DNA from: Bacilli bacterium
GTDB taxonomy: Bacteria > Bacillota_I > Bacilli_A > RF39 > UBA660
Direction: 5' to 3'
Assembly: GCA_017553685.1 (NCBI GenBank)
Contig: JAFZKH010000002.1
Coordinates: forward strand, 44,141 to 108,140
DNA: 64,000 nt
Of the stretch, positions 3,786 to 16,850 are shown piece after piece. The number at the start of each line of letters is the position of its first letter. The first letter of the stretch is position 1. The notes under the pieces were generated by a model, which searched no databases, had not been told where the DNA came from, and saw only the letters and a list, made by a program, of their open reading frames with translations. A program made the translations under genes and the position numbers.

Positions 3786-4056
3786 TACCTCTAAATTAAT
3801 AAAAGAAATAGATAATACATATGAAGTAATTAGATTTAAAGAACTTAGTAAAGTTATTAAATCTAATAAAGAATATATGACTTTAATAGATAAATTAAAT
3901 AGTACTGATAACATTAACGATGTAATTGCTATCAGAAAAGAGTTATTTAAGTACGGTGATATTAAAGAATATATTGAATTAGAGAAACAAATAAGATTAT
4001 TCTCTATGAGGCTTAGTAAAGAATTATCTAGTATAGTAGAAAAGCATACTTGTTAA
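3769..4056 (+). CDS. YlbF/YmcA-like (UPF0342) small regulatory protein
   Basis: About 95 aa and helical. The xEIDNTYEVIRFKEL...KEYxELEK pattern resembles the Com_YlbF family. The listed ATG at 3703 lies inside the Gly-rich tail of the upstream gene. GTG at 3769 follows the GGAGGAGGAGG stretch, which could act as the SD. The start is uncertain. Confidence 0.4.
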   Translation: MAQAGNTSKLIKEIDNTYEVIRFKELSKVIKSNKEYMTLIDKLNSTDNINDVIAIRKELFKYGDIKEYIELEKQIRLFSMRLSKELSSIVEKHTC

Positions 4057-4095
4057 AGTATGCTTTTTTTACTATAATTATTTTAGGTGAATTAA

Positions 4096-4635
4096 ATGAG
4101 AGTTATTAGTGGATTATTAAAAGGAAGAAATATAGAAGGCTTTGATATAGAAGGAACTAGACCTACAATGGATAGAGTTAAAGAATCTATATTTTCAACT
4201 ATTCAGTTTAGTATTAGAGATTCTATAGTTTTAGATTTATTTTCTGGTTCTGGTAACCTTGGTATAGAAGCAATTAGTAATGGTGCTAGTAAATGTTATT
4301 TTGTAGATAATAATAGAGTAGCTATTAATACTATTAATAAAAATATTAAGACATTTAATATAGAAGAAAATTCTATAATTATTAAAGATGATTATATGAA
4401 TGCTCTTAACAATTTAAAGAATACTAAGTTTGATATAGTATTCTTAGATCCTCCATATAAAGATAATTATATTGATAAAGCAATTACTAAATTATTAGAA
4501 TATAATATGCTTAATCCTAAAGCATTAATTATATGTGAATATGATAGAGATATTAATCATGAATATGATTCTTTAGAAGAACTAAAAACTAAGAAATATG
4601 GAGATAAATTCGTAACAATTTTCAAAAAAATTTAA
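4096..4635 (+). CDS. rsmD: 16S rRNA (guanine966-N2)-methyltransferase RsmD
   Basis: LDLFSGSGNLGIEAISNGA and the DPPY motif of an N6-adenine/N2-guanine MTase; about 180 aa. Confidence 0.85.
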   Translation: MRVISGLLKGRNIEGFDIEGTRPTMDRVKESIFSTIQFSIRDSIVLDLFSGSGNLGIEAISNGASKCYFVDNNRVAINTINKNIKTFNIEENSIIIKDDYMNALNNLKNTKFDIVFLDPPYKDNYIDKAITKLLEYNMLNPKALIICEYDRDINHEYDSLEELKTKKYGDKFVTIFKKI

Positions 4636-4655
4636 TAGTGTTATAATCTAAATGT

Positions 4656-4730
4656 TGCCCCATAGCCAAGTGGTAAGGCTCCGGACTCTGACTCCGGCAC
4701 GCGTAAGTTCGAATCTTACTGGGGCAGCCA
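4656..4730 (+). tRNA. tRNA-Gln (anticodon CUG)
   Basis: Cloverleaf is complete: the acceptor stem TGCCCCA pairs with TGGGGCA, the D-arm is AGCCAAGTGGTAAGGC, the anticodon stem is CCGGA/TCCGG around loop CTCTGAC, the T-arm is GTAAG-TTCGAAT-CTTAC, and CCA is encoded. It closely matches bacterial tRNA-Gln. Confidence 0.85.
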
Positions 4731-4740
4731 TTTTTATGTG

Positions 4741-4769
4741 TTGATTTTAACATGCTAAAGTGTTATAAT
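4741..4769 (+). promoter_or_regulatory. sigma-A type promoter (TTGATT-N17-TGtTATAAT) upstream of the glycan locus
   Basis: -35 TTGATT, a 17-nt spacer, and an extended -10 TGTTATAAT. Confidence 0.5.
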
Positions 4770-4826
4770 GATTTTACGATATAAGAGAATAAAAAGTAAT
4801 AATTATATAGAAATAGGAGCTTTATT

Positions 4827-5495
4827 ATGGCAACAAATAAAAAAGAAAAAATAGATTATGTTGAAAAAAATAGAAAGAAATATTTTTATAGATTTGTTAA
4901 AAGATCATTTGATATTTTCTGTTCTATACTAGGAATGTTATTAGTACTACCAGTAGCATTAGTTACTAAGATTTGTTATTTATGTACTAAAGATACTAAA
5001 TCAATCTTTTATAAACAAAAAAGAATTGGTAAGTATGGAAAAATTATATATATTTATAAGTTTAGAAGTATGGTTTATAATGCTGATGAAGTATTAAAAG
5101 AATTATTAAAAGATCCAAAATATAAAAAAGAATGGGATAAGAATCAAAAGATTAATGATGATCCGAGAATTACTAAGATAGGTGGATTCCTTAGAAAGAC
5201 TTCTTTAGATGAATTACCACAATTCATTAATGTATTTATAGGAGATATGTCTTTAATAGGACCAAGACCTTTAGTAGAAGGAGAATTAGATGCTCATCAT
5301 GGAGATCATAAATTATATGAATCTGTTAGACCAGGTATATCTGGTTGGTGGGCTGCTAATGGAAGAAGTGCAACAGATTATGTTGAAAGACTAGAACTAG
5401 AAAACTATTATTGCAAAAATTGTAGTATCTGGTTAGATATTAAATGTATATTTAGAACAATAAAAGCAGTAATATTTAGAAGTGGAGCAAAATAG
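4827..5495 (+). CDS. Priming sugar-phosphate transferase (bacterial sugar transferase family, WbaP/CpsE C-terminal type)
   Basis: One TM helix, then KFRSM...DELPQF...GDMSLIGPRP, the PF02397 signature. Confidence 0.85.
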   Translation: MATNKKEKIDYVEKNRKKYFYRFVKRSFDIFCSILGMLLVLPVALVTKICYLCTKDTKSIFYKQKRIGKYGKIIYIYKFRSMVYNADEVLKELLKDPKYKKEWDKNQKINDDPRITKIGGFLRKTSLDELPQFINVFIGDMSLIGPRPLVEGELDAHHGDHKLYESVRPGISGWWAANGRSATDYVERLELENYYCKNCSIWLDIKCIFRTIKAVIFRSGAK

Positions 5496-5518
5496 ACTTA
5501 AATAGTCTATTTTTTTTT
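5493..5518 (+). terminator. Rho-independent terminator overlapping the stop codon
   Basis: TAGACTTAAATAGTCTA hairpin followed by T9. Confidence 0.5.
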
Positions 5519-5652
5519 ATATAAAAATATTGTGATATAAACAAATGTATGCTACGATTAAATTGTATTAATTATTCTAGCATGCGTTAATATGACAATT
5601 TGCGCGCGTACCGTTTATTTACTAAAGCTAGATAGTAAATTTGCATGACCGC

Positions 5653-5700
5653 GGGGAACACTTTCTATTAATAGATACGGGAGGTGTTTCCCGTTTTTTT
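5653..5700 (+). terminator. Intrinsic terminator/attenuator hairpin within a GC-rich leader
   Basis: GGGAACAC...GTGTTTCCC stem followed by TTTTTTTTGTTTTTT. Confidence 0.55.
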
Positions 5701-5778
5701 TGTTTTTTAGGAGGTGATTTTATACATAGGTTAGCAAATATAATTAATACAAATATTATTCATTTATAGGAGGTTTAT

Positions 5779-6717
5779 ATGGAAAATGAAATAATTATTT
5801 TTGAAAATCAAAATATTAAATTAGAAGTTAATATGAAGGATGAGACTGTGTGGTTATCTTTAGATCAAATGTCACAATTATTTGGAAGAGATAAGTCTGT
5901 TATTTCTAGGCATATTAAGAATGCATTAGACGAGGAACTTAATAAATCAGTTATTGCAAAATTTGCAACAACTGCAGGAGATGGTAAAACATATCAAGTT
6001 GAATATTATAACTTAGATATGATTATATCTGTTGGTTATAGGGTAAAATCTAAAGAAGGTATAGTATTTAGAAGATGGGCTACTAGTGTATTAAAAGACT
6101 ATATGCTTAAGGGATATGCTGCTAATGAACAAAGACTAAAGTATTTAGAGAAGACAGTTCAGTTAATTGATATAGCAGGAAGAATAGAAGAAGAGCTTCA
6201 TGGAACTGAGGCACAAGATATTATTAAAGTGATTAATAATTATTCTAATGCTTTAAATCTATTAGATGATTATGATCATAGATCATTATCTAAACCTAAA
6301 GGAACAGTATCAGATGATATGATTACATACGATAATTGTTTAAATGTAATAGGATTACTTAGATTTAATAATGATAGTGATATATTTGCATTAGAAAGAA
6401 ATAAGGGATTAAAGTCTATTATTGCTAATATTTATCAAACATTTGGTGGTAAAGATGTTTATCCGACAATTGAAGAAAAGGCTGCTAATTTCTTATATCT
6501 AATTATTAAGAATCATACATTTATAGATGGTAATAAAAGAATAGCTGCTACATTATTTATTTACTTTTTAGAGTATTATAATATTCTTTACAAGAATGAA
6601 AAAAGAGTATTAGATAATAATACTTTAGTAGCTTTAACTCTTTTAATAGCAGAGTCTAATCCTAAAGAAAAAAGTATATTAATTGATTTGGTAATGAACT
6701 TTTTAATAGACAAGTAA
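5779..6717 (+). CDS. RhuM-family N-terminal domain fused to a Fic/DOC (death-on-curing) domain
   Basis: The N-terminal half matches the RhuM virulence-protein family (VGYRVKSKEGIVFRRWATSVLKDY). The C-terminal half carries the Fic/Doc core (HTFIDGNKRIAATLFIYFL). Confidence 0.75.
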   Translation: MENEIIIFENQNIKLEVNMKDETVWLSLDQMSQLFGRDKSVISRHIKNALDEELNKSVIAKFATTAGDGKTYQVEYYNLDMIISVGYRVKSKEGIVFRRWATSVLKDYMLKGYAANEQRLKYLEKTVQLIDIAGRIEEELHGTEAQDIIKVINNYSNALNLLDDYDHRSLSKPKGTVSDDMITYDNCLNVIGLLRFNNDSDIFALERNKGLKSIIANIYQTFGGKDVYPTIEEKAANFLYLIIKNHTFIDGNKRIAATLFIYFLEYYNILYKNEKRVLDNNTLVALTLLIAESNPKEKSILIDLVMNFLIDK

Positions 6718-6746
6718 TTGTCTATTTTTCTTTTCTTTAGTATAAT
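6718..6746 (+). promoter_or_regulatory. Promoter TTGTCT-N17-TATAAT
   Basis: Consensus-like hexamers with 17-nt spacing upstream of galE. Confidence 0.45.
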
Positions 6747-6767
6747 TAAATTAGTATAGGAGGATAA

Positions 6768-7775
6768 ATGAAGAATATACTTGTAACTGGTGGAACTGGA
6801 TATATTGGTTCTCATACAGTAGTTGAATTATTAGAAAATGGAGATAATGTAATAATAGTAGATAATTTATCTAATAGTAAAATAGAGGTAATAGATGCTA
6901 TTAAGAAGATAACTGGTAAAGAAGTTAAATTTTATAATATTAATTATTTAGATAGAAAAGAATTAGAAAAAGTATTTGAGGAAAATGAAATAGATTCTGT
7001 TATTAATTTTGCAGGATATAAAGCAGTAGGAGAATCTACTAAGAAACCATTAGAATATTATGAAAATAATGTTTCTGGTGCAATAGTACTTTTAGAAACT
7101 ATGCAAAAGTATAATGTTAAAAAGTTTGTATTTAGTAGTAGTGCTACTATATATGGAGAACAATCTGTTCCAAAATATGTAGAAACTATGAATAGAGGTA
7201 TACCATCTAGTCCATATGGTATGACTAAAGTTATGATAGAACAAATCTTAGAAGATTTATATAAAGCAGATAATGAATGGAGTATATCTGTTCTTAGATA
7301 CTTTAATCCAGTAGGAGCTCATCCTAGTATGTTAATAGGAGAAGATCCAGAAGGAATACCAAATAATTTAATGCCATATATTCAAAGAGTAGCAGCAGGT
7401 AAATTACCAGAATTAACTATATTTGGTAATGATTATCCAACACCTGATGGTACTTGTTTAAGAGATTATTTACATGTAGTAGATTTAGCTAAAGGACATT
7501 TAAAAGCATTAGAAAATTTAAATAAAAAAGGATCTGGTATATATATTCATAATCTTGGAACAGGTAATCCAAAGAGTGTACTTGAAATGGTTAATACATT
7601 TAAAAGTGTTAATGGTATAGATGTACCATATAAGTTTGGCCCAAGAAGAGATGGAGATCTACCAGAATTCTATGCAGATCCATCTAAAGCAGAAAAAGAA
7701 CTAGGTTGGAAAGCAGAAAAGACTTTAGAAGATATGTGTAGAGATTCATGGAATTATCAAAAGAATAAAATGTAA
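6768..7775 (+). CDS. galE: UDP-glucose 4-epimerase
   Basis: GGTGYIGSH Rossmann motif, YxxxK, and YFNPVGAHPS...GEDP, typical of GalE. Confidence 0.9.
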   Translation: MKNILVTGGTGYIGSHTVVELLENGDNVIIVDNLSNSKIEVIDAIKKITGKEVKFYNINYLDRKELEKVFEENEIDSVINFAGYKAVGESTKKPLEYYENNVSGAIVLLETMQKYNVKKFVFSSSATIYGEQSVPKYVETMNRGIPSSPYGMTKVMIEQILEDLYKADNEWSISVLRYFNPVGAHPSMLIGEDPEGIPNNLMPYIQRVAAGKLPELTIFGNDYPTPDGTCLRDYLHVVDLAKGHLKALENLNKKGSGIYIHNLGTGNPKSVLEMVNTFKSVNGIDVPYKFGPRRDGDLPEFYADPSKAEKELGWKAEKTLEDMCRDSWNYQKNKM

Positions 7776-7803
7776 AAGATATGTCTTATGACATATCTTT
7801 TGT
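7776..7803 (+). terminator. Rho-independent terminator
   Basis: Perfect 10-bp stem AAGATATGTC/GACATATCTT with loop TTAT, followed by a T-rich run. Confidence 0.6.
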
Positions 7804-7855
7804 ATTTTACTTTTTATTATAAAAATACTATAATATTATAAAGAGGAATGAGTTA

Positions 7856-9919
7856 ATGAAAAAGAAATTTTCTGAAAATAAAAATAAAATTATTGATAGT
7901 ATTAAGAATTTTAGTTTTAAGAAATTATTACATCAGATATTACACTTTATTAAATATAATAGAGTTTTTTTATCGTATGTAATACTTTCTTTAATTAGTT
8001 GTAAATTACTAAGATTATTTACTATAGAAGATGGTATTAATATTAAAGCATTTTTATTTGATTTATCAATTATATTATTACTTGGTAGTTTAGGTTATTT
8101 CTTTAAACCTAAGAATCAATTTAAATATTGGTTACTATTATTAATACTATATACATTTATAAATACAGTAAATGGTATGTATTATTTATTCTTTACATCA
8201 TTTGCATCATTCTCATTATTAGAAACATTTGCACAAACATTTACTGTTAGTGATTCTGTAGTAGCTAAATTATCTTATAAGACATTTGTATATTTATTTA
8301 TTTTAATTATTTATATAGTTCATAGAGAAATACTTAGAAAGAAAAGATATTATTTCACTGTGGAAAAAGTAGAGAAAAGAAAGAAAATATTACCTGCTGT
8401 ATTAATAACAGGTGCTGCTATATTAGTTATTAGTGTTTGTATGCTTAATAAAACAGATTTATCTAGACTTAGAAAGCAATGGAACAGAGAATACATAGTT
8501 GAACGATATGGAGTACTTGTATATCAAGGAAATGATTTAGCACAAACTATTAAAACTAAATTAGATGCTACTTTTGGTAAAGATAAAGCAGCAGAAGAAT
8601 TTATTAATTATTATAATAACAATACTAATCCAAAGAGTAATAATGAATATACTAATAAACTTGAAGGTTATAATGTAATTATTATTCACTTAGAAAGTAT
8701 GATGCAGTTTTTAGTAGGTTTAGAAATAAATGGACAAGAAGTAACACCAAACTTAAATAAGTTAACAAGAGAATCAATGTATTTTGATAATTTCTATTCA
8801 CAAGTAAGTGTAGGTACTTCATCAGATGCAGAGTTTACTTTAAATACAAGTTTATTACCAGCTCAATCAGGTACAGTAGCAGTTTCTTACTATAATAGAA
8901 ACTATGTTTCTTTAGAAAAACTATTAAATGAAAAAGGATATTATACATTCTCTATGCATGGTAATAAAGCTAGTATGTGGAATAGAGCTAACTTACATGA
9001 TTCACTTGGTTATGAAAGATTCTATAGTCAAGATGATTATGAAATAGATGAAGTAATAGGACTTGGTTTATCTGATAAATCATTTTTTAGACAATCTGAA
9101 GTTAAACTAGGAGAAATCAAAGAAATGGTTGATTCATCAGATAAATATAATAACTATATGGGTACTATACTTATGCTTTCTAATCATACACCATTTGAAG
9201 ATCCATATTATCTTGAAGGAGAAGATACCTTTGATGTTAGATATCATACAGGACAATATGATGAAGAAGGTAATGAAATCATTTATGATTATTTATTAGA
9301 TGAAAATGTAAAAACTATTGGTAGATATATAAGAAGTGTTCACTATGCTGATGAAGCACTAGGAGAATTCATGGAATATGTTAATACCCATGATGAATTT
9401 AATAAGACAGTATTTGTTATGTATGGAGATCATGCAGCACAAATAGGTAAATCAGAGTTTGCAGCATATAATAACTTTGATCCAGAAACAGGAGAGTTCT
9501 TAGATAAAACTAGTGAAAACTATAATAACTATGATTATTATTCAAATGAAGTATTTAAGAAAGTTCCATTCTTAATATATACTAAAGATGGATCTATTAA
9601 ACCAAATACATATTCTTATCCTATGGGTATGATAGATGTATTCCCAACTATTGGAAATATGCTTGGTATTTATAATCAATATGCTTTAGGAAAAGATATC
9701 TTTGAAATAAAAGATGATAATACAGTAGTGTTCCCTAATGGAAACTTCTTAACAAAAGATGTATATTATTATGCAACATCAGATAATTATAAGATATTAG
9801 ATCCTGATGCACAATTAAGTTCTGATTATGTAGAAGAACATAAATTATACTCAGAAGGTATTATTAAAGAATCAAATGATTTAATACTTTATAACTTAAT
9901 AGAATATACAAAGGAATAA
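7856..9919 (+). CDS. LTA-synthase-family (LtaS-like) sulfatase / phosphoglycerol transferase, polytopic N-terminus plus extracellular catalytic domain
   Basis: Five N-terminal TM helices, then a sulfatase domain (NVIIIHLESM...TPNLNKL...FYSQVSVGTSSDAEF). Confidence 0.75.
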   Translation: MKKKFSENKNKIIDSIKNFSFKKLLHQILHFIKYNRVFLSYVILSLISCKLLRLFTIEDGINIKAFLFDLSIILLLGSLGYFFKPKNQFKYWLLLLILYTFINTVNGMYYLFFTSFASFSLLETFAQTFTVSDSVVAKLSYKTFVYLFILIIYIVHREILRKKRYYFTVEKVEKRKKILPAVLITGAAILVISVCMLNKTDLSRLRKQWNREYIVERYGVLVYQGNDLAQTIKTKLDATFGKDKAAEEFINYYNNNTNPKSNNEYTNKLEGYNVIIIHLESMMQFLVGLEINGQEVTPNLNKLTRESMYFDNFYSQVSVGTSSDAEFTLNTSLLPAQSGTVAVSYYNRNYVSLEKLLNEKGYYTFSMHGNKASMWNRANLHDSLGYERFYSQDDYEIDEVIGLGLSDKSFFRQSEVKLGEIKEMVDSSDKYNNYMGTILMLSNHTPFEDPYYLEGEDTFDVRYHTGQYDEEGNEIIYDYLLDENVKTIGRYIRSVHYADEALGEFMEYVNTHDEFNKTVFVMYGDHAAQIGKSEFAAYNNFDPETGEFLDKTSENYNNYDYYSNEVFKKVPFLIYTKDGSIKPNTYSYPMGMIDVFPTIGNMLGIYNQYALGKDIFEIKDDNTVVFPNGNFLTKDVYYYATSDNYKILDPDAQLSSDYVEEHKLYSEGIIKESNDLILYNLIEYTKE

Positions 9920-9981: not shown

Positions 9982-10018
9982 TATATATATACATAATATG
10001 TCAGGAGGATGGATTAAA

Positions 10019-10807
10019 ATGAAAAAAATTACAGTAATAATTGCTACTCATAAAGAGTATCAAATGCCAAAGGATAATTTGTATTTACCTGTTCAAGTAG
10101 GTGCTGAAGGAAAGAAAGATTTAGGTTACACAAGAGACAATACAGGAGATAATATATCTACAAAGAATCCTTTTTTTTGTGAACTAACTGGTTTATATTG
10201 GGCTTGGAAAAATTTAGATTATGATTATTTAGGACTTGCTCATTATAGAAGACATTTTGGTTTAAAGAAAAAGAAATATAAGAAAATAGAAGATACATTA
10301 GATCATGTATTAACTAGAAAAGAAGCAAAAGAATTATTAAAAGATTGTGATGTAATACTTCCAAAGAAAAGAAAGTATTATATTGAAAACTTATATCATC
10401 ATTATAAAAGTACTATGCATGTAGAAACTTTAGATGAAACAAGAAAGATTTTAGAAGAAAAATATCCAGAGTATTTACCTGAATTTGATAAACTTCATAA
10501 GAGAACTTCAATGCATGCATTTAATATGTTTATTATGAAGAAAGAAATATTAGATGGATATTGTACTTGGTTATTTGATAATTTATTTGAATTAGAGAAA
10601 AGAATAGATACTTCTAAGTATGATGCATTCCATGCTAGATTCTATGGAAGAATCTCAGAAAGACTTCTTGATGTATATTTAAATACAAATGGTATAAAAT
10701 ATAAAGAAATACCATTTATAGAAATAGAACATATAAATTGGATAAAGAAAGGATTTAGTTTCTTATTAGCTAAATTTTTTGGTAAGAAATATGGGAAAAG
10801 CTTCTAA
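10019..10807 (+). CDS. DUF4422-family glycosyltransferase
   Basis: IATHKEY...ELTGLYWAWKN...GLAHYRR motifs. The ATG at 10019 is preferred because the AGGAGG SD lies inside the listed 9998 start. Confidence 0.7.
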   Translation: MKKITVIIATHKEYQMPKDNLYLPVQVGAEGKKDLGYTRDNTGDNISTKNPFFCELTGLYWAWKNLDYDYLGLAHYRRHFGLKKKKYKKIEDTLDHVLTRKEAKELLKDCDVILPKKRKYYIENLYHHYKSTMHVETLDETRKILEEKYPEYLPEFDKLHKRTSMHAFNMFIMKKEILDGYCTWLFDNLFELEKRIDTSKYDAFHARFYGRISERLLDVYLNTNGIKYKEIPFIEIEHINWIKKGFSFLLAKFFGKKYGKSF

Positions 10808-11792
10808 AAAAAGCCCACTAATCTCCATAATAATACCTGTTTACAAAGTAGAAGAATTTTTAGATAGATGTGTTAAGAGTGTTACTAAACAAACATACAA
10901 ACATCTAGAAATAATACTCGTGGACGATGGATCTCCTGATAATTGTCCAAAGATGTGTGATGATTGGGCTAAGAAAGATAAAAGAATAAGAGTAATTCAC
11001 AAAAAGAATGGTGGATTATCTGATGCTAGAAATGCTGGTATTAGAGTAGCTAAAGGTGACTATATTGGTTTTATTGACTCAGATGACTGGATTGATAAAA
11101 AAATGTATGAAGTATTATATAAGAATATAGTTAAATATGATGCTGATATATCTTGTTGTGAATTATATAAGGGTTCTAGTAATCCTACTGAAAAAGAATT
11201 AAAAGAATACGATAATAAAGTTAAAACATATAATCAAGAAGAATATATGAAAATATTTTTTAAGATTGGAACTCAACAATGTGTGTATTATGCAGTTACT
11301 AAACTATATAGAAGAGAATTGTTAGAGGATAACTTATATCCTGTAGGATTAACTTCTGAGGATGTTGTTGGAACATGCAAAGTACTTTTTAAATGTAATA
11401 AAATAGTATCTGTTAATTATCCATATTACATTTACTATAAGAATGACAAGAGTATTACAGGTAGTAAGTTTTCAAATAATGACTTTCATTTATTAGAAAT
11501 ATGGGATAAAGTAGTAGATCTATGTAAAGATACTGAGTATGAGGATATGGCTACATTAAATAGAGAAAGAATAGATTATACTTTATTAATGAGAATGGCT
11601 GTTCAGTTATCTAATAAAGAAATAAATGAAAAATATGGTGATTATAAAAAAGAATTACTTGAAAGACTTAAAAAGAACAAGAAAAGATTATTAAAGTCAC
11701 CAATACCAACATCTAGAAAGATAACTCTTAGATTATTACTTTTAAATTATAGATTATTTGTTAGTACATGCAAATTATATTTAAAGAGGTAA
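10791..11792 (+). CDS. Family 2 glycosyltransferase
   Basis: ISIIIPVYKVEEFL...VDDGSPD...DSDDW, the GT2 DxD signature. Confidence 0.8.
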   Translation: MGKASKKSPLISIIIPVYKVEEFLDRCVKSVTKQTYKHLEIILVDDGSPDNCPKMCDDWAKKDKRIRVIHKKNGGLSDARNAGIRVAKGDYIGFIDSDDWIDKKMYEVLYKNIVKYDADISCCELYKGSSNPTEKELKEYDNKVKTYNQEEYMKIFFKIGTQQCVYYAVTKLYRRELLEDNLYPVGLTSEDVVGTCKVLFKCNKIVSVNYPYYIYYKNDKSITGSKFSNNDFHLLEIWDKVVDLCKDTEYEDMATLNRERIDYTLLMRMAVQLSNKEINEKYGDYKKELLERLKKNKKRLLKSPIPTSRKITLRLLLLNYRLFVSTCKLYLKR

Positions 11793-11796
11793 GCAT

Positions 11797-12984
11797 ATGA
11801 AGAATAAAAAGAATTTGATATGGATTATTTTATTTACTTTTATGCTAATGGTTTACTTTGAACCACAAATGTTTAAAGAAAATGCTTTTGATGGAGTAGA
11901 AACAGTAGATTTTGTATATAAAGTTCTAAAACTATTATCGTTTGGATTTGTATCTGTTCTATATCTAAAAGAAAATAAATTTAGAATATCTAATTTGTTA
12001 TTAGCAATTGGTGTTTTACAAGCAATTATGCTTTTATCAACAATTCTATATAAGGGTGATATATCTAGATTTGCTGGTCCTGCAATTACTACTGTAACAA
12101 TGTGTATGATTGCAGAACTATTAATAAAAAAGAAATTGTTATTTCAAGTTTTAGAAATAGTTAATTACTATTTCTTAATTTGCTTTATTTTGAATGTTAT
12201 ATCAATTTATCTAATTGATTATACTTTCTTTTGTTCATACACAAAAGTATATTTTTTAGGTATAGATAATAGATTTATATTTACATTTATTCCATGGATT
12301 TTATTTGAAGGGTTAGTTAGTTTATACAAAAAAGATACTATCGGAATAAGATGGAGAATAGTATTTTGTTTATGTGAATTAACATTAATATATACTTTCT
12401 CAGCAAGTGCAATGTTAGTATTATTTATATATGCACTTATGATGTTTAATTATAATTTTAAGATAAGACTTGATAAATTAATATTTGCAGGTTATCTAGG
12501 AGCTAATATAGCAATAGTAATATTTAAGATTCAAAAGATCTTTAAACCACTTATTGTTTTAATTGGAAAAGATATAACTTTTGCTGGTAGAACTTATTTA
12601 TGGGATGGAATAATAAAACAATTTCCAAAATATCCTTTAATCGGAAGAGGAATGCAATCTGTTAAATATGATAAAACATTTTTCTTTAATACATCTGGTG
12701 CATATCATTTAGAGTGTTGTAGAGTTATACATGCTCATAATTCACTTATGACTTTATTATATAGAGGTGGATTATTATCAGTATTTATTTATCTTGGAAT
12801 TATATATGCTTCACTAAAAAGTATATATGATAATTATTTAAACAAGTACGCAAAAATATTATTAGTATCATTATTAGCAATTCTAGCAACATCTATATTT
12901 GACACAATGGATTTTGCAGGATTATATTTTATAATTGCTTTAATAATTAATATAAGCCTTATAGAAGTAAAAAAAAACACATAA
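11797..12984 (+). CDS. Wzy-type polymerase / O-antigen-ligase-domain membrane protein
   Basis: About 10 TM helices and the HAHNSLMTLLYRGGLLS motif of the Wzy_C / O-antigen ligase domain. Confidence 0.7.
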   Translation: MKNKKNLIWIILFTFMLMVYFEPQMFKENAFDGVETVDFVYKVLKLLSFGFVSVLYLKENKFRISNLLLAIGVLQAIMLLSTILYKGDISRFAGPAITTVTMCMIAELLIKKKLLFQVLEIVNYYFLICFILNVISIYLIDYTFFCSYTKVYFLGIDNRFIFTFIPWILFEGLVSLYKKDTIGIRWRIVFCLCELTLIYTFSASAMLVLFIYALMMFNYNFKIRLDKLIFAGYLGANIAIVIFKIQKIFKPLIVLIGKDITFAGRTYLWDGIIKQFPKYPLIGRGMQSVKYDKTFFFNTSGAYHLECCRVIHAHNSLMTLLYRGGLLSVFIYLGIIYASLKSIYDNYLNKYAKILLVSLLAILATSIFDTMDFAGLYFIIALIINISLIEVKKNT

Positions 12985-13004
12985 TTAAATGGAGGTGAGA
13001 GAAA

Positions 13005-14189
13005 ATGATAAAAACATTAAAATATATCGTTAGAAGTATTGAAATTTACTTTAGATATTTTTTAAGTATTATTTTTAGAATTTTCCCTATTAATCCAAAA
13101 AAAATAGTTGTTTGTTCATACTTTGGAAATGATTATGGTGATGGAGCAAAATATATTATTGATGAATTATTAGATGATGATAAATATACAATAGTATGGG
13201 CATTAAAAAAGAATTTAATGAAAAATAATCATTTACCTAAGAATGTAAAACCTGTGAAGTATAATTCTTTAGCAATGCTTTTTGAATTATCTACTGCTAA
13301 AATCTGGATAGATAATGCAAGAAAAGTTATATTTCCATTAAAAAGGAAAAATCAGTTTTATTTTCAAATATGGCATGGGCCAATATCATTTAAAACAATT
13401 GAGTTAGATACACAGGAAACTTTAACAAAAATATATATTAAAAAATTATTAATTGACAATAAAAATATAGATTATATGGTATCAGGTTCTAAATGGACAA
13501 ATGAAAAATGTAGAAGTGCATTTGGATATACAGGTAAAATAATGGAATGTGGAAATCCAAGAAATGATATTTTATTTCAATCTGATTCATATAAAGAAAT
13601 TAATAAAAAAGTGCATTCTTTTTTTAACATTCCTGACAACAAGAAGATTATTCTATATGCCCCAACATTTAGAAATAGTAGAGAGATTGATATTTATCAA
13701 TGGGATTACAACTTGATTATGAACAATTTTTGTAAAAAGTTTAAAGAAGACTATGTTTTCTTAGTTAGACTTCATCCAAATATTGTTGATCAAGCTGAAA
13801 AAATGAATAATTATGGTGGAAACATTTTAAATGCAACCATTTATCCTGATATGCAAGAGTTATTAATTGCTTCTGATATATTAATCACTGATTATTCTTC
13901 TTCAATGTTTGATTTTGGAATGATTAATAAGAAATGCTTTTTATATGCTCCTGATGTTGATGATTATTTAAAAGAAAGACATTTTTATTTTGATATAAGA
14001 AAACTACCTTTTTCTTTATCTCAAAATATTGATGACTTTGTTAAGAATATTTCTTCATTTGATAGCAAAGATTATCAAAAAAAATTGGATACATTTTATA
14101 AGAAGATTGGAATCTTTGAAACAGGACATTCATCTGAAAGTATAGCAAATAGAATTAAGGAGATTTGTGATAAAAATGAAAAAAAATAA
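13005..14189 (+). CDS. CDP-glycerol glycerophosphotransferase (TagF/TagB family)
   Basis: ILYAPTFR...VRLHPN...ITDYSS, the Glyphos_transf (PF04464) signature. Confidence 0.85.
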   Translation: MIKTLKYIVRSIEIYFRYFLSIIFRIFPINPKKIVVCSYFGNDYGDGAKYIIDELLDDDKYTIVWALKKNLMKNNHLPKNVKPVKYNSLAMLFELSTAKIWIDNARKVIFPLKRKNQFYFQIWHGPISFKTIELDTQETLTKIYIKKLLIDNKNIDYMVSGSKWTNEKCRSAFGYTGKIMECGNPRNDILFQSDSYKEINKKVHSFFNIPDNKKIILYAPTFRNSREIDIYQWDYNLIMNNFCKKFKEDYVFLVRLHPNIVDQAEKMNNYGGNILNATIYPDMQELLIASDILITDYSSSMFDFGMINKKCFLYAPDVDDYLKERHFYFDIRKLPFSLSQNIDDFVKNISSFDSKDYQKKLDTFYKKIGIFETGHSSESIANRIKEICDKNEKK

Positions 14190-15405
14190 ATTATTACAAA
14201 ACACAATTTTTTTATACATTTTGACATTTAGTTCTTATTTTTTTAATTTTATATCTGTTCCATATTTAACTAGAGTATTAGGGCCATCTCTATTTGGTAA
14301 AGTTGGTTTAGCAATAGCTATTTCAACATATTTTAAATTATTATTTGATTTTGGCTTTATATTATCCGCTACAGAAGAGGTATCAAATAATCGTGAAGAT
14401 AAAAAAAGAATTTCAAAAATACTTACATCTGTTAATATTTTAAAAATATTATTAATAGTAGTAGGTTTAATAGTTTTTGTTTTAATGATAGTTTTCTTTC
14501 CATCATTAAGAAAGTATAAGTTATTATATTTCCTATATTTTGTATATGTAGCTATAGATTGCTTCCAACCAGATTTTGTATATCGTGGTATAGAAGAAAT
14601 GAAAATAATTACAATAAGAAATGTTTGTATAAAAGCATTTTTTACTGCATTAATATTCATTCTATTAAAAGATAAAAGTCAATATATGTTAATTCCTGTA
14701 TTTAATATATGTGGTTCATTCTTTTCTTTAATTGCAGTTTATATACATGTTATAAAAAAATTGAAAATCAATTTTATAAAAGTTACAAAAGAAGAGGTAA
14801 AAGAAAGATTTAATAGTAGTAAAATATTCTTTTTATCAAGAATAGCTACAACAATATATGGAGCTACTAATACATTTATTCTAGGTATTATATATCCTAC
14901 AGGTAATACACTTGGTTATTATACATCATCTGATAAAATACTTCAGGCAGGAAGATCAATGATGTCTCCAATATCAGATAGTGTATATCCATATATGGTT
15001 AAGAATAAAGATTTTAAATTAATTAAAAAAATATTGATTACATTAATGCCAATTATAACTGTATTTGGTGTTGTAGGATTTATATTTGCTAAGAAAATAT
15101 GTATTATAGCATTTGGTTCTGAATATGCTGGATCTGCTATTGTATTAAGATATATGATTCCACTTATTTGGATGACATTACCAAGTTATATTTTAGGTTT
15201 TCCAACAATGACTCCGTTAGGATTAAAGAAAGAAGCAAATAATTCAGTTATTATTGGATCAATATATCAAATTGTTGGTATAGGAATTCTATATTTATTA
15301 AGAGTATTAAATCTACATAGTATTTGTATTTTAACAATTACTACAGAACTACTAATACTATTATTAAGAATATTCTATATTGTAAAGAATAGAAATAAGA
15401 AATAG
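14176..15405 (+). CDS. Wzx-type oligosaccharide flippase (polysaccharide biosynthesis protein family)
   Basis: Twelve predicted TM helices, and an N-terminus (NTIFLYILTFSSYFFNFISVPYLTRVLG) typical of Wzx. An alternative GTG start lies at 14167. Confidence 0.75.
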   Translation: MKKNKLLQNTIFLYILTFSSYFFNFISVPYLTRVLGPSLFGKVGLAIAISTYFKLLFDFGFILSATEEVSNNREDKKRISKILTSVNILKILLIVVGLIVFVLMIVFFPSLRKYKLLYFLYFVYVAIDCFQPDFVYRGIEEMKIITIRNVCIKAFFTALIFILLKDKSQYMLIPVFNICGSFFSLIAVYIHVIKKLKINFIKVTKEEVKERFNSSKIFFLSRIATTIYGATNTFILGIIYPTGNTLGYYTSSDKILQAGRSMMSPISDSVYPYMVKNKDFKLIKKILITLMPIITVFGVVGFIFAKKICIIAFGSEYAGSAIVLRYMIPLIWMTLPSYILGFPTMTPLGLKKEANNSVIIGSIYQIVGIGILYLLRVLNLHSICILTITTELLILLLRIFYIVKNRNKK

Positions 15406-15419
15406 TGCAGGGAGGTTTT

Positions 15420-15824
15420 ATGAAGAAAATATTAACATATGGTACATTTGATTTATTGCATATAGGTCATATTGAAATATTGAGAAGAGCAAAAGAACTA
15501 GGAGATTATTTAGTTGTAGCTGTTTCTACAGATGAGTTTAATGCAATAAAAGGTAAAAAAGCATATTATAGTTATGAAGATAGAAAGAAAATTCTTGAAG
15601 CTATTAAATATGTTGATTTAGTTATTCCTGAGGAAAAATGGGAACAAAAAAGAGATGACGTTATTAAATATGGAATCGATACAGTAGTTATGGGTTCAGA
15701 TTGGGAAGGCAATGAAAACTTTGAATGTTTAAGAGATATTTGTAATGTTGTTTATTTACCACGTACTGAGGGTATTTCTACAACAATGATTAAGAATGAT
15801 TTAGGTGATAAAAAACTAAAATAA
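15420..15824 (+). CDS. tagD: Glycerol-3-phosphate cytidylyltransferase
   Basis: YGTFDLLHIGHIEILRRAKELGDYLVVAVSTDEFN is near-identical to the TagD/Gct family. Confidence 0.9.
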   Translation: MKKILTYGTFDLLHIGHIEILRRAKELGDYLVVAVSTDEFNAIKGKKAYYSYEDRKKILEAIKYVDLVIPEEKWEQKRDDVIKYGIDTVVMGSDWEGNENFECLRDICNVVYLPRTEGISTTMIKNDLGDKKLK

Positions 15825-15836
15825 AGGTATTAATAA

Positions 15837-16850
15837 ATGAAAAGTAAAGAAAGAATAGAATATTTGGATATTGCAAAAGGTATAGCAATTTTACTAATAA
15901 TTATGGGACATATGAGTCTTAAACATGTGAATTCAGTTGTATTTACATTTCATGTACCAATATTCTTTATTATTAGTGGATACTTTTTTACTAAAAAATA
16001 CAATTATAAAGAGTTATTGAGTAAATTATTTAAGACATTAATTGTTCCTTATTTGGTAACTTGCTTACTAATAATAATATTTATGTTTTGTAGAAAAATG
16101 ATATCGGGGGGGGTCAATAGTTTATTATTCTCCCAAATATATAATCAAATATTAGCTTCATTATATGGTAGTGGTCTTACAAGTTATTATTTCCACATAT
16201 GGCCTATAGGAGCCATTTGGTTTTTATTATCATTATTTTGGTCAAAAATAATATTCAATTTTTTAATAGATAAAAAATATAAATACATATATATAATTTT
16301 AATATTTATTCTTGGTATTATTAGTAAAAAAATAATTTGGTTACCATTTAGTATCCAACCAGGAATGACATGCTTATTATTTTTATATATTGGTTATTTA
16401 GCTAGAAGATTAGATTTATTTAGAATATTTAAGATATGGCATTTATTAGTATTCTTTCTTACAACAGTATTGGTTATATTAGTTAATTTCAAGCTGTATA
16501 GATGGGGATGTATGAGTTTAGTATCAAATAGTTTTACTAATATTCCACTTAATATATTAGGTGCTATATCAGGAAGTTTCTTTACAATAACTATTTCAAA
16601 ATATTTATCTAAATCAAAAATAATATTAAAAGTATTATCTTTCTTTGGAAAACATTCATTAATTGTATTATGTTTTCATTTATTAGAAATGAAAACTATT
16701 CCTTTTTTAGATTTAGCAGGATTAATTACAAGTAATTATTATTTAAAATATTCTATTTTATTTTTAATAAAAATTATATGGGCTTCGCTATGTATTCTTG
16801 TAGTAAAGAAAATACCTATATTTAGAAGATTATTTTCTTTAAAATCATAG
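15837..16850 (+). CDS. Membrane O-acyltransferase (acyltransferase 3 family)
   Basis: N-terminus IEYLDIAKGIAILLIIMGHM and 10 TM helices. Contains the G8 tract listed below. Confidence 0.8.
   Translation: MKSKERIEYLDIAKGIAILLIIMGHMSLKHVNSVVFTFHVPIFFIISGYFFTKKYNYKELLSKLFKTLIVPYLVTCLLIIIFMFCRKMISGGVNSLLFSQIYNQILASLYGSGLTSYYFHIWPIGAIWFLLSLFWSKIIFNFLIDKKYKYIYIILIFILGIISKKIIWLPFSIQPGMTCLLFLYIGYLARRLDLFRIFKIWHLLVFFLTTVLVILVNFKLYRWGCMSLVSNSFTNIPLNILGAISGSFFTITISKYLSKSKIILKVLSFFGKHSLIVLCFHLLEMKTIPFLDLAGLITSNYYLKYSILFLIKIIWASLCILVVKKIPIFRRLFSLKS
16106..16113 (+). repeat. Poly-G (G8) homopolymeric tract inside the acyltransferase CDS
   Basis: The sequence reads atatcGGGGGGGGtcaat directly. No other G or C run longer than 5 occurs elsewhere in the window. 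Confidence 0.9.

Follow-up and report, generated by a model that had tools for sequence, protein, structure and literature searches.

We analyzed a 64,000-nt stretch of contig JAFZKH010000002.1, here called the window, from the metagenome-assembled genome of a gut "Bacilli bacterium" with a guanine-plus-cytosine (GC) content of about 25%. The window encodes a RhuM-Doc fusion protein of 312 amino acids. Its open reading frame (ORF) begins with ATG and lies at positions 5779 to 6717 of the forward strand; features below are on this strand (+) unless the other (-) is named. The gene sits inside a surface-glycan locus. It is a self-contained cassette that stands outside the polysaccharide pathway, and it is very probably a mobile accessory element unrelated to glycan synthesis. 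We read it as a mobile, leader-gated, single-gene Doc-kinase toxin and defense candidate, with a probability of roughly 0.5. A preliminary description of this DNA, made from the sequence, had recorded the fusion, its position, and a structured leader. Three points go beyond it. The fusion belongs to a large named family, the insert is old and fixed in its clade, and the leader is an RNA class common to several gene families.

The RhuM-Doc gene lies between a priming sugar transferase and galE, as first described. The left neighbor (4827 to 5495) matches Bac_transf (Pfam PF02397, E = 9e-61). The right neighbor (6768 to 7775) is a GalE-type epimerase and matches Epimerase/GDP_Man_Dehyd (Pfam, E = 1e-56 to 2.5e-58). 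The gene had been suspected of being an insertion, and comparison with a syntenic relative (L221-L223) bears this out. In that relative the site is empty, with the Bac_transf and galE genes 64 nt apart. The gene order there is topoisomerase, LemA, DUF2207, RsmD, tRNA-Gln, Bac_transf, GalE, and LtaS, and Bac_transf is 75% identical to that of the window. The junctions were placed by blastn at 5522 and 6704 of the window. The 33-nt terminator region of L221 (5661 to 5693) aligns to both ends of the insert.

The inserted cassette is about 1.2 kb long (5523 to 6730). It consists of a promoter, a leader RNA, the RhuM-Doc ORF, and a terminator. The left junction is the transferase terminator (5494 to 5522), a hairpin read from the sequence as AGACTTAAATAGTCT and followed by a T-run; L221 aligns up to 5522. 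The right junction is the cassette terminator (6708 to 6738), a hairpin likewise read from the sequence as AGACAA-GTAA-TTGTCT with a T-rich run; L221 aligns from 6704. An 18-nt imperfect direct repeat brackets the insert at 5501 to 5518 (AATAGTCTATTTTTTTTT) and 6716 to 6733 (AATTGTCTATTTTTCTTT), with a spacing of 1,215. Each copy is a terminator 3' arm plus U-run. The repeat could have arisen by duplication of the target, by recombination at the terminator, or because two terminators converged. No GC anomaly was found across the insert. The preliminary description had also placed a promoter behind the ORF. The promoter-like sequence exists (TTGTCT-17-TATAAT, 6718 to 6746, found by scan), but it belongs to galE and is part of the glycan locus, since it is conserved at the empty site of L221.

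The insert is old. The identical protein was retrieved from this genomic context only. At least three sister lineages hold the gene at the same site, with flanking housekeeping genes 90 to 96% identical and RhuM-Doc 82 to 86% identical to the window. Compared with the L089 lineage, the synonymous divergence (dS) is 0.53 for RhuM-Doc and 0.49 to 0.55 for the flanking genes. The ratio of nonsynonymous to synonymous divergence (dN/dS) of RhuM-Doc is 0.12 to 0.20. A dS like that of the flanks together with a low dN/dS indicates that the gene descended vertically under purifying selection. An ancestor of this clade acquired the cassette, between the transferase terminator and the galE promoter, and its descendants have passed it on vertically. 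The gene owes its place in the glycan locus to an old insertion rather than to a functional link.

Another insertion was seen nearby. At 3820 to 4900, L221 contains a 302-amino-acid, membrane-anchored ORF with no Pfam match, inserted between tRNA-Gln and the transferase gene. With insertions on both sides of the transferase gene, one in the window and one in L221, this short stretch is an indel hotspot.

The RhuM-Doc ORF is preceded by a structured leader RNA of about 140 nt (5565 to 5701), recognized by covariance model, covariation, fold, and terminator scan. The leader noted earlier is thus a conserved, pseudoknotted RNA with covariation support. It begins with a 5' hairpin, P0 (5565-5571 / 5587-5593). 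Helix P1 (5576-5581 / 5627-5632, CUUGCC/GGCAAG) joins the P0 loop with the P2 loop as a pseudoknot or kissing helix. The P2 hairpin (5613-5622 / 5635-5644) is a helix of the covariance model. The intrinsic terminator was found by terminator scan; it pairs 5652-5666 with 5679-5693 and ends in a U-run (5694-5701). Three single-stranded stretches are invariant: UUAAUAUGACAAUUUGG, CAUG, and UGCGG.

The putative cassette promoter (5530 to 5558) reads TTGTGA-17-TACGAT and has a TG-extended -10. It scores below the scan threshold and was recognized by the conservation of its -35 and -10 columns in the alignment. The promoter consensus of leader cassettes is TTGTAA-17-TATAAT, and sister lineages contain TATAAT in the place of the window's TACGAT. 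A Shine-Dalgarno (SD)-like sequence, AGGAGGTGAT, follows directly after the leader terminator (5709 to 5718); in the window, no start codon comes after it. In ORF6N cassettes it serves the main ORF. The window's AGGAGGTGAT is probably a relic of a generic cassette design, which suggests an exchange that put the RhuM-Doc ORF behind a generic leader. In sister and other lineages (L089, L091, and L076), mini-ORFs of 6 to 22 codons stand behind the same sequence.

The covariance model matches the window once in its 64 kb, at 5555 to 5718, with 111 bits and E = 3e-19. The single-sequence fold of the leader has a free energy of -45.2 kcal/mol (z = -3.3). For the covariation analysis, 70 distinct sequences were aligned to a covariance model that holds P2 and the terminator only. 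Paired cells reached 94.4%, versus 76.5% after shuffling (none of 500 shuffles reached the observed value) and 44 to 51% when the partners were slid by 1 to 3 columns. Changes on both sides were found in 24 of 34 leader pairs. Compensatory changes occur in 5 of the 6 pairs of P1, which is absent from the model, in 8 of 10 pairs of P2, and in 10 of 11 pairs of the terminator. P1 was also found independently by RNAalifold. P0 hardly varies: one of its pairs is compensatory, and 7 sequences have mismatches in it; this helix is compatible with the data, not proven. G-U pairs fall on the + strand, in agreement with an RNA transcribed in the same direction as the gene behind it. The window and the L089 lineage share 87% leader identity although synonymous dS is about 0.5, which suggests that the leader itself is under constraint.

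We found no match to the leader among the 4,227 families of Rfam 15; the best E value was 0.95, with permissive filters and a 181-nt query. Permissive thresholds applied to positions 4500 to 8000 yielded nothing from Rfam except a tRNA. No description of the leader RNA was found in the literature search. It is a well-supported structured RNA that is absent from Rfam 15.

Further patterns were seen in the leader alignment. Manual pairing of the J region (CGC) with the invariant UGCGG, as a third helix, gave only 2 to 5 bp, was inconsistent across subtypes, and was rejected. The segments before P2 (5602 to 5612) and before the invariant GCGG (5645 to 5653) co-vary, without a consistent Watson-Crick helix. 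CGCU occurs with C/UUGCGG, CGAU with AUGCGG, CGACU with (C/A)AUGCGG, GCGCGU with ACCGCGG, and UUGCG with ACCGCAG. A tertiary contact could explain this, as could shared ancestry. An all-against-all screen of column pairs was too noisy to use. Many leader terminator stems contain the palindromes GATATC or GTATAC in both arms, which may be chance in AT-rich sequence.

Clear leader homologues stand directly in front of RhuM-Doc genes whose contexts are unrelated (L014, L054, L076, L079, and L092). Other genes are preceded by them too, in L028 and, as a second copy, in L054. The invariant-core pattern was present in at least 120 metagenome stretches, and nhmmer confirmed 85 of 120. It had no matches in 2.9 million viral contigs. 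We retrieved 60 distinct downstream ORFs. They include 29 ORF6N proteins, 9 RhuM proteins (7 with Fic), 5 DUF1016/YhcG nucleases, 5 Bro-N proteins, 4 methyltransferases, 1 KilA-N protein, and a few others. PADLOC assigned 31 of the leader-downstream ORFs to ORF6N-type PDC-S05 models and 10 to PDC-S23. The distance from the leader motif to the ORF start is only 20 to 21 nt in many cassettes, so that expression there needs read-through of the terminator.

The same RNA subtypes stand before ORF6N, RhuM-Doc, YhcG, and Bro-N genes. The leader was found at 6 of 80 RhuM-Doc loci from other species (about 7%). At so few loci, it is a lineage-specific add-on and not intrinsic to the mechanism of the protein. 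Shared subtypes and this low count also show that the RNA is not a dedicated RhuM-Doc antitoxin. The leader is a lineage-specific common control element, and such an element before varied genes argues for a shared signal or trans-factor.

Tandem cassettes were found in L054 (4719 to 8016) and L119 (4565 to 7864). They contain, in order, YhcG, leader, YhcG (split into 70 and 252 amino acids), leader, and RhuM-Doc. The array adjoins a 111-amino-acid ORF that is RelE-like by eye and a 346-amino-acid ORF with an XRE helix-turn-helix (HTH), forming a small cassette island. ORF6N proteins of about 290 amino acids behind the leader (L210, 10618 to 11529; L036, 6220 to 6921) contain a conserved C-terminal segment, ...FHDRYIIxD...GxS.... 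By eye, it resembles the HxK/RxxxxD nuclease motif of the phospholipase D (PLD) type. This would make them sensor-plus-nuclease fusions that parallel RhuM-Doc.

The protein contains an N-terminal RhuM module and a C-terminal Fic domain. A profile hidden Markov model (HMM) search placed both Pfam domains above their gathering scores, in agreement with the architecture first proposed. The RhuM module comprises residues 1 to 125 (5779 to 6153) and is delimited by Pfam RhuM, PADLOC PDC-S05, PHROG, and invariant columns. Virulence_RhuM (PF13310) matches residues 57 to 123 with E = 6e-24 and 85.1 bits (gathering cutoff, 33.7). The match is limited to profile positions 1 to 70 of 252; positions 71 to 252 are unmatched, and the Doc domain stands in their place. 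The module has a beta-hairpin/HTH-like part and a core that reads YNLDxIISVGYRVKS...FRxWA. It is related to nucleic-acid-binding modules of the ORF6N/Bro-N type. Many PADLOC PDC-S05 (RhuM) models match the N-terminal half, from residues 1-126 up to 1-194. The N terminus also has weak matches to PHROG anti-repressors. A helical linker follows (residues 126 to 195; 6154 to 6363), where the AlphaFold2 predicted local distance difference test (pLDDT) score is below 50 for residues 105 to 168.

The Doc-type Fic domain comprises residues 196 to 312 and, with the stop codon, positions 6364 to 6717. It is supported by Pfam Fic, TIGR01550, PHROG, PDB entry 9vzc, and Foldseek. Fic/DOC (PF02661) matches residues 207 to 264 with E = 1.8e-11 and 45.1 bits (cutoff, 24). 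The PHROG "Doc-like toxin" matches with E = 6.5e-16. The solved "death-on-curing family protein" 9vzc matches with E = 1.7e-6 when the family profile is used. At the domain level, the best Foldseek matches are P1 Doc chains (3dd7_A, probability 1.00, TMt 0.65), obtained on low-confidence models.

The catalytic motif is H246-T-F-I-D-G-N-K-R254 (6514 to 6540). The regular expression HxFx[DN][AG]NKR matches at residue 246 (HTFIDGNKR, residues 246 to 254), and the peptide HTFIDGNKRIAATLFIYF covers residues 246 to 263. The motif is invariant in 54 of 54 homologues. These family members are 37 to 100% identical and come from gut Bacillota and from Legionella, Pseudomonas, and other proteobacteria. 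H246, F248, D250, G251, N252, K253, and R254 do not vary among them. The suggestion that GNKR replaces GNGR, as in the Doc subclass, is therefore upheld by the alignment. The AMPylase motif HxFx(D/E)GNGRxxR is absent from the protein, which reads HTFIDGNKRIAA, with K for the second G and the final R missing. The inhibitory motif [ST]xxxE[GN] is also absent from the 312 residues, and there is no partner gene to supply one. With an invariant motif and a dN/dS of 0.12 to 0.20, the ORF is intact and selectively maintained. A 75-codon antisense ORF (6588 to 6815, -) overlaps both the 3' end of RhuM-Doc and the beginning of galE and is, in all likelihood, spurious.

The identical protein is named "virulence protein RhuM/Fic/DOC family protein" at NCBI. 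It matches PADLOC PDC-S23 over its full length (PDLC04965, E = 6.3e-120, residues 1 to 309 on profile positions 1 to 323 of 327). We retrieved more than 8,000 close homologues. At least 578 stretches of species-representative genomes encode relatives. An exhaustive search of 1.84 billion representatives gave 895 clusters at 50% identity with E <= 1e-30. No paper that mentions the name PDC-S23 was found in the literature search. RhuM is often fused to DOC, and RhuM takes the slot of DOC toxins in restriction-modification (R-M)/PrrC neighborhoods (Anantharaman et al., 2013). According to a 2023 survey (PMC9881135), the core genes of type I R-M operons can be interspersed with DUF1016, dinD/RhuM, and Fic/DOC genes. 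The families downstream of the leader are those that this literature finds embedded in type I R-M operons. The PDC-S23 match and the R-M-locus literature are consistent with a predicted phage-defense or abortive-infection module parked in a glycan locus, which the preliminary description had offered as one option.

Neighborhoods were sampled at 80 RhuM-Doc loci from other species, and the gene was callable in 77. None of the 80 had the window's flanking genes beside the homologue. The 393 neighbors from the 77 loci fell into 283 clusters. The 144 immediate neighbors match 142 different Pfam families. No recurrent neighbor family was found at a fixed position by clustering of all 393 or by Pfam and PADLOC searches of the 144. 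The full-length fusion is plasmid-borne in Vibrio, Aeromonas, Shewanella, Pseudomonas, and Legionella. On a Legionella pneumophila conjugative plasmid (L214, 3061 to 6966), only 1 nt separates the RhuM/Fic/DOC gene from the Tn3-family transposase gene before it, and it looks like transposon cargo. Among 78 phage records, a single one contains the fusion at full length. Phage satellites and the Wolbachia WO phage commonly carry RhuM N-modules.

No cognate antitoxin had been seen beside the gene, and none emerged from the window gaps or as a conserved partner in the 77 other loci. Neither the 283-nt upstream gap nor the 50-nt downstream gap contains a conserved ORF, and no gene for a Phd/YefM-type antitoxin is adjacent. 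The sole ORF of the upstream gap has 42 codons and a TTG start and runs through the terminator hairpin. It is not kept in sister lineages. At the other loci, the small upstream ORFs encode cupin, GNAT, CMD-like proteins and similar, apart from a few HTH ORFs that are weighed below.

We propose the following mechanism. Transcription from the cassette promoter would mostly halt at the leader terminator. A signal sensed by the pseudoknotted leader would permit read-through; no conserved antiterminator was found by inspection. The Doc-type site HxFxDGNKR would then phosphorylate a target, which by analogy with P1 Doc may be a translation factor such as EF-Tu. Phosphorylation of the target would arrest translation and growth. 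The RhuM N-module and the linker may act as a sensor or autoinhibitor in place of a separate antitoxin. Overall, the protein would be an antitoxin-less toxin and a candidate for abortive-infection-type defense. We infer its kinase activity, target, toxicity, autoinhibition, trigger, and anti-phage role from knowledge of P1 Doc and from the defense-island literature.

Several observations weigh against this reading. The window gene is set in a glycan locus rather than in a defense island. PDC-S23 is a single-gene phage-defense "candidate" only. The TIGR01550 (DOC_P1) match has 34.3 bits, below the NCBI cutoff of 38.65, and covers profile positions 32 to 89 of 122. The AlphaFold2 model is of low confidence, with a pLDDT of 64.7 at full length, 65.9 for residues 120 to 312, and the linker minimum given above. 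Foldseek found no match in PDB at E <= 0.001 with either the full or the truncated model, and the truncated model (120 to 312) fared worse than the full-length one. The assignment of the Fic fold rests on sequence. The leader, at 6 of 80 loci, is rare in the family. XRE-type HTH ORFs of 79 to 88 amino acids lie directly upstream of RhuM-Doc in 3 of 77 loci (L013, 7732 to 7971; L018, 7738 to 8004; L045, 7732 to 7971), 29 nt away or with a 4-nt start overlap. On Vibrio plasmid L213, a 92-amino-acid HTH ORF (6938 to 7213) overlaps the 3' end of the RhuM-Doc gene. In a minority of the family, these HTH ORFs may encode a partner regulator or an antitoxin. The gene's surroundings on Vibrio and Shewanella plasmids are rich in small ORFs of the same strand, which would also fit an establishment or anti-defense role.

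These points bear on four other explanations. A regulator or modifier of envelope biogenesis had been suggested, in which the Fic/Doc enzyme modifies the polysaccharide or teichoic-acid machinery as a functional part of the operon. The gene does share its strand with the priming transferase and galE, between which it lies, and the site is kept in at least three sister lineages under purifying selection. However, the L221-L223 locus lacks the gene at exactly that site, the flanking genes accompany none of the 80 homologues from other species, and the family occurs in unrelated contexts across those species, on plasmids, and with Tn3. The cassette also has its own promoter, leader, and terminator, and this leader stands before ORF6N, YhcG, and Bro-N genes as well, none of which is linked to glycans. 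We consider an envelope role very improbable. A catalytically dead relic, or a pseudo-enzyme that hitchhikes without a current function, would explain the TIGR01550 score and the poor structure model. The preliminary description had considered a degenerate Fic domain in a housekeeping gene universally conserved at this position; we found an invariant motif (54 of 54) and a syntenic relative that is missing the gene. The low dN/dS, an intact ORF in every lineage examined, and the 895 representative clusters also make a dead relic hard to credit.

If an antitoxin was overlooked, it could be a small protein, or the leader RNA could fill that role in a layout like that of type III systems. The order of promoter, pseudoknotted RNA, terminator, and toxin-like gene resembles ToxIN-type loci, and the HTH ORFs upstream in 3 of 77 loci and downstream on the Vibrio plasmid could be such proteins. 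This explanation appears quite unlikely for the window gene, whose upstream gap has no conserved ORF and whose family has no recurrent neighbor. The RNA is single-copy, occurs at few RhuM-Doc loci, and precedes unrelated families in the same subtypes, and Doc is not an RNase able to process an RNA antitoxin. The protein may instead be a nonlethal factor of mobile elements. It could then bind DNA in the manner of an anti-repressor and use its Doc domain to modify a specific regulator of the phage, plasmid, or host, for establishment, anti-defense, or addiction rather than for defense. This would agree with the weak PHROG anti-repressor matches, with the RhuM N-modules of phage satellites and Wolbachia WO phage, and with the fusions that occur amid small-ORF arrays on plasmids and as transposon cargo. 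On the other side stand the single phage record among 78, the lack of leader matches in 2.9 million viral contigs, the literature that ties the family to R-M/PrrC defense loci, and the listing by PADLOC as a defense candidate. We regard this explanation as unlikely, though it deserves more weight than the other three.

The leader-gated Doc-kinase toxin and defense candidate is the reading that we retain. A broader form of it can be put forward tentatively. The leader may represent a sensor RNA of a new class, which would either resemble a riboswitch or respond to a factor from phage or host. It might co-regulate, through its terminator, single-gene sensor-plus-effector defense candidates (ORF6N, RhuM-Doc, Bro-N/KilA-N/DinD-like, and DUF1016/YhcG) in gut Bacilli. 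RhuM-Doc would then be an antitoxin-less Doc kinase with an RNA switch as its safety catch.

Beyond the cassette, the window contains tRNA-Gln(CTG) at 4656 to 4730 (ARAGORN; Rfam tRNA, 64 bits), upstream of the transferase gene and outside the insert; the gene on its other side encodes an RsmD-like methyltransferase. Beyond galE, Pfam searches identified LtaS-like, DUF4422, GT2, Wzy_C, Glyphos_transf, Wzx-type, cytidylyltransferase, and acyltransferase genes. The surrounding genes form a Wzx/Wzy-type surface-glycan or teichoic-acid-like locus. At 9998 to 16850 the window encodes GT2, Wzy_C, and Glyphos_transf, in a region where the L089 sister lineage (GCA_016648615.1) encodes two GT1, Gtf3, and O-ag_pol_Wzy. 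The glycan locus is serotype-like, with a variable interior downstream of LtaS/DUF4422 and conserved flanks.

Among the genes of unknown function in defense islands and type I R-M operons, some of the most frequent are RhuM, ORF6N, DUF1016/YhcG, DinD/Bro-N, and solitary Fic/Doc genes. To our knowledge, none of them has a demonstrated mechanism or trigger. One lineage places all these gene families behind one conserved structured RNA. Whatever opens the leader terminator would be a shared input signal for the whole group, which provides a testable handle. The leader lifts the finding above the ordinary, as one control element links RhuM-Doc with ORF6N, Bro-N/KilA-N, and YhcG genes. A large family of putative antitoxin-less Doc kinases with an invariant active site also raises the question of how it is silenced, whether by RNA gating, intramolecular control, or both. 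For annotation, the case is a warning. A gene inside a glycan operon, conserved there across sister species, may still be an unrelated insert.

The leader can be compared with two known arrangements. Like riboswitch and attenuator leaders, it contains a conserved pseudoknotted domain with invariant unpaired nucleotides, followed by an intrinsic terminator and an SD, and the RNA domain is kept while the downstream genes vary. Unlike them, it precedes accessory or defense-type genes rather than metabolic or transport genes, and it matched no Rfam 15 family. Like type III toxin-antitoxin systems (ToxIN-like), the locus has the order promoter, pseudoknotted RNA, intrinsic terminator, and toxin-like ORF. 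Unlike those systems, the window RNA is a single copy without tandem repeats and is not tied to one protein family, and the window protein is not an endoribonuclease.

The protein can be compared with four. P1 Doc, the toxin of Phd/Doc, phosphorylates EF-Tu by means of the motif HxFx(D/N)(A/G)NKR. Its kinase activity with EF-Tu as the target was reportedly described by Castro-Roa and colleagues in 2013. The window protein resembles P1 Doc in this motif, which is invariant in its family, and in its matches to the Doc model, to a solved Doc-family protein, and to P1 Doc as the best domain fold. It differs in that the Doc domain is the C-terminal third of a 312-amino-acid fusion and in that its gene is chromosomal and solitary, stands behind an RNA leader, and has no Phd-type antitoxin. 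With the AMPylating Fic proteins (classes I to III; VbhT/VbhA, NmFic, and FICD) it shares the PF02661 superfamily, and FICD and bacterial Fic chains are among the weak Foldseek matches. It lacks both HxFx(D/E)GNGRxxR and the inhibitory [ST]xxxE[GN] helix and therefore is not to be classed as an AMPylase. With RhuM (of Salmonella SPI-3, of R-M loci, and of PDC-S05) it shares its N-terminal 125 residues, which match PF13310 positions 1 to 70 and many PDC-S05 models. Unlike the RhuM genes of R-M loci, it has no adjacent R-M genes at the window locus. From the PDC-S23 or NCBI RhuM/Fic/DOC family it does not differ. The protein itself is an ordinary member of this known, uncharacterized family. New here are the insertion site in a glycan locus and the structured RNA leader.

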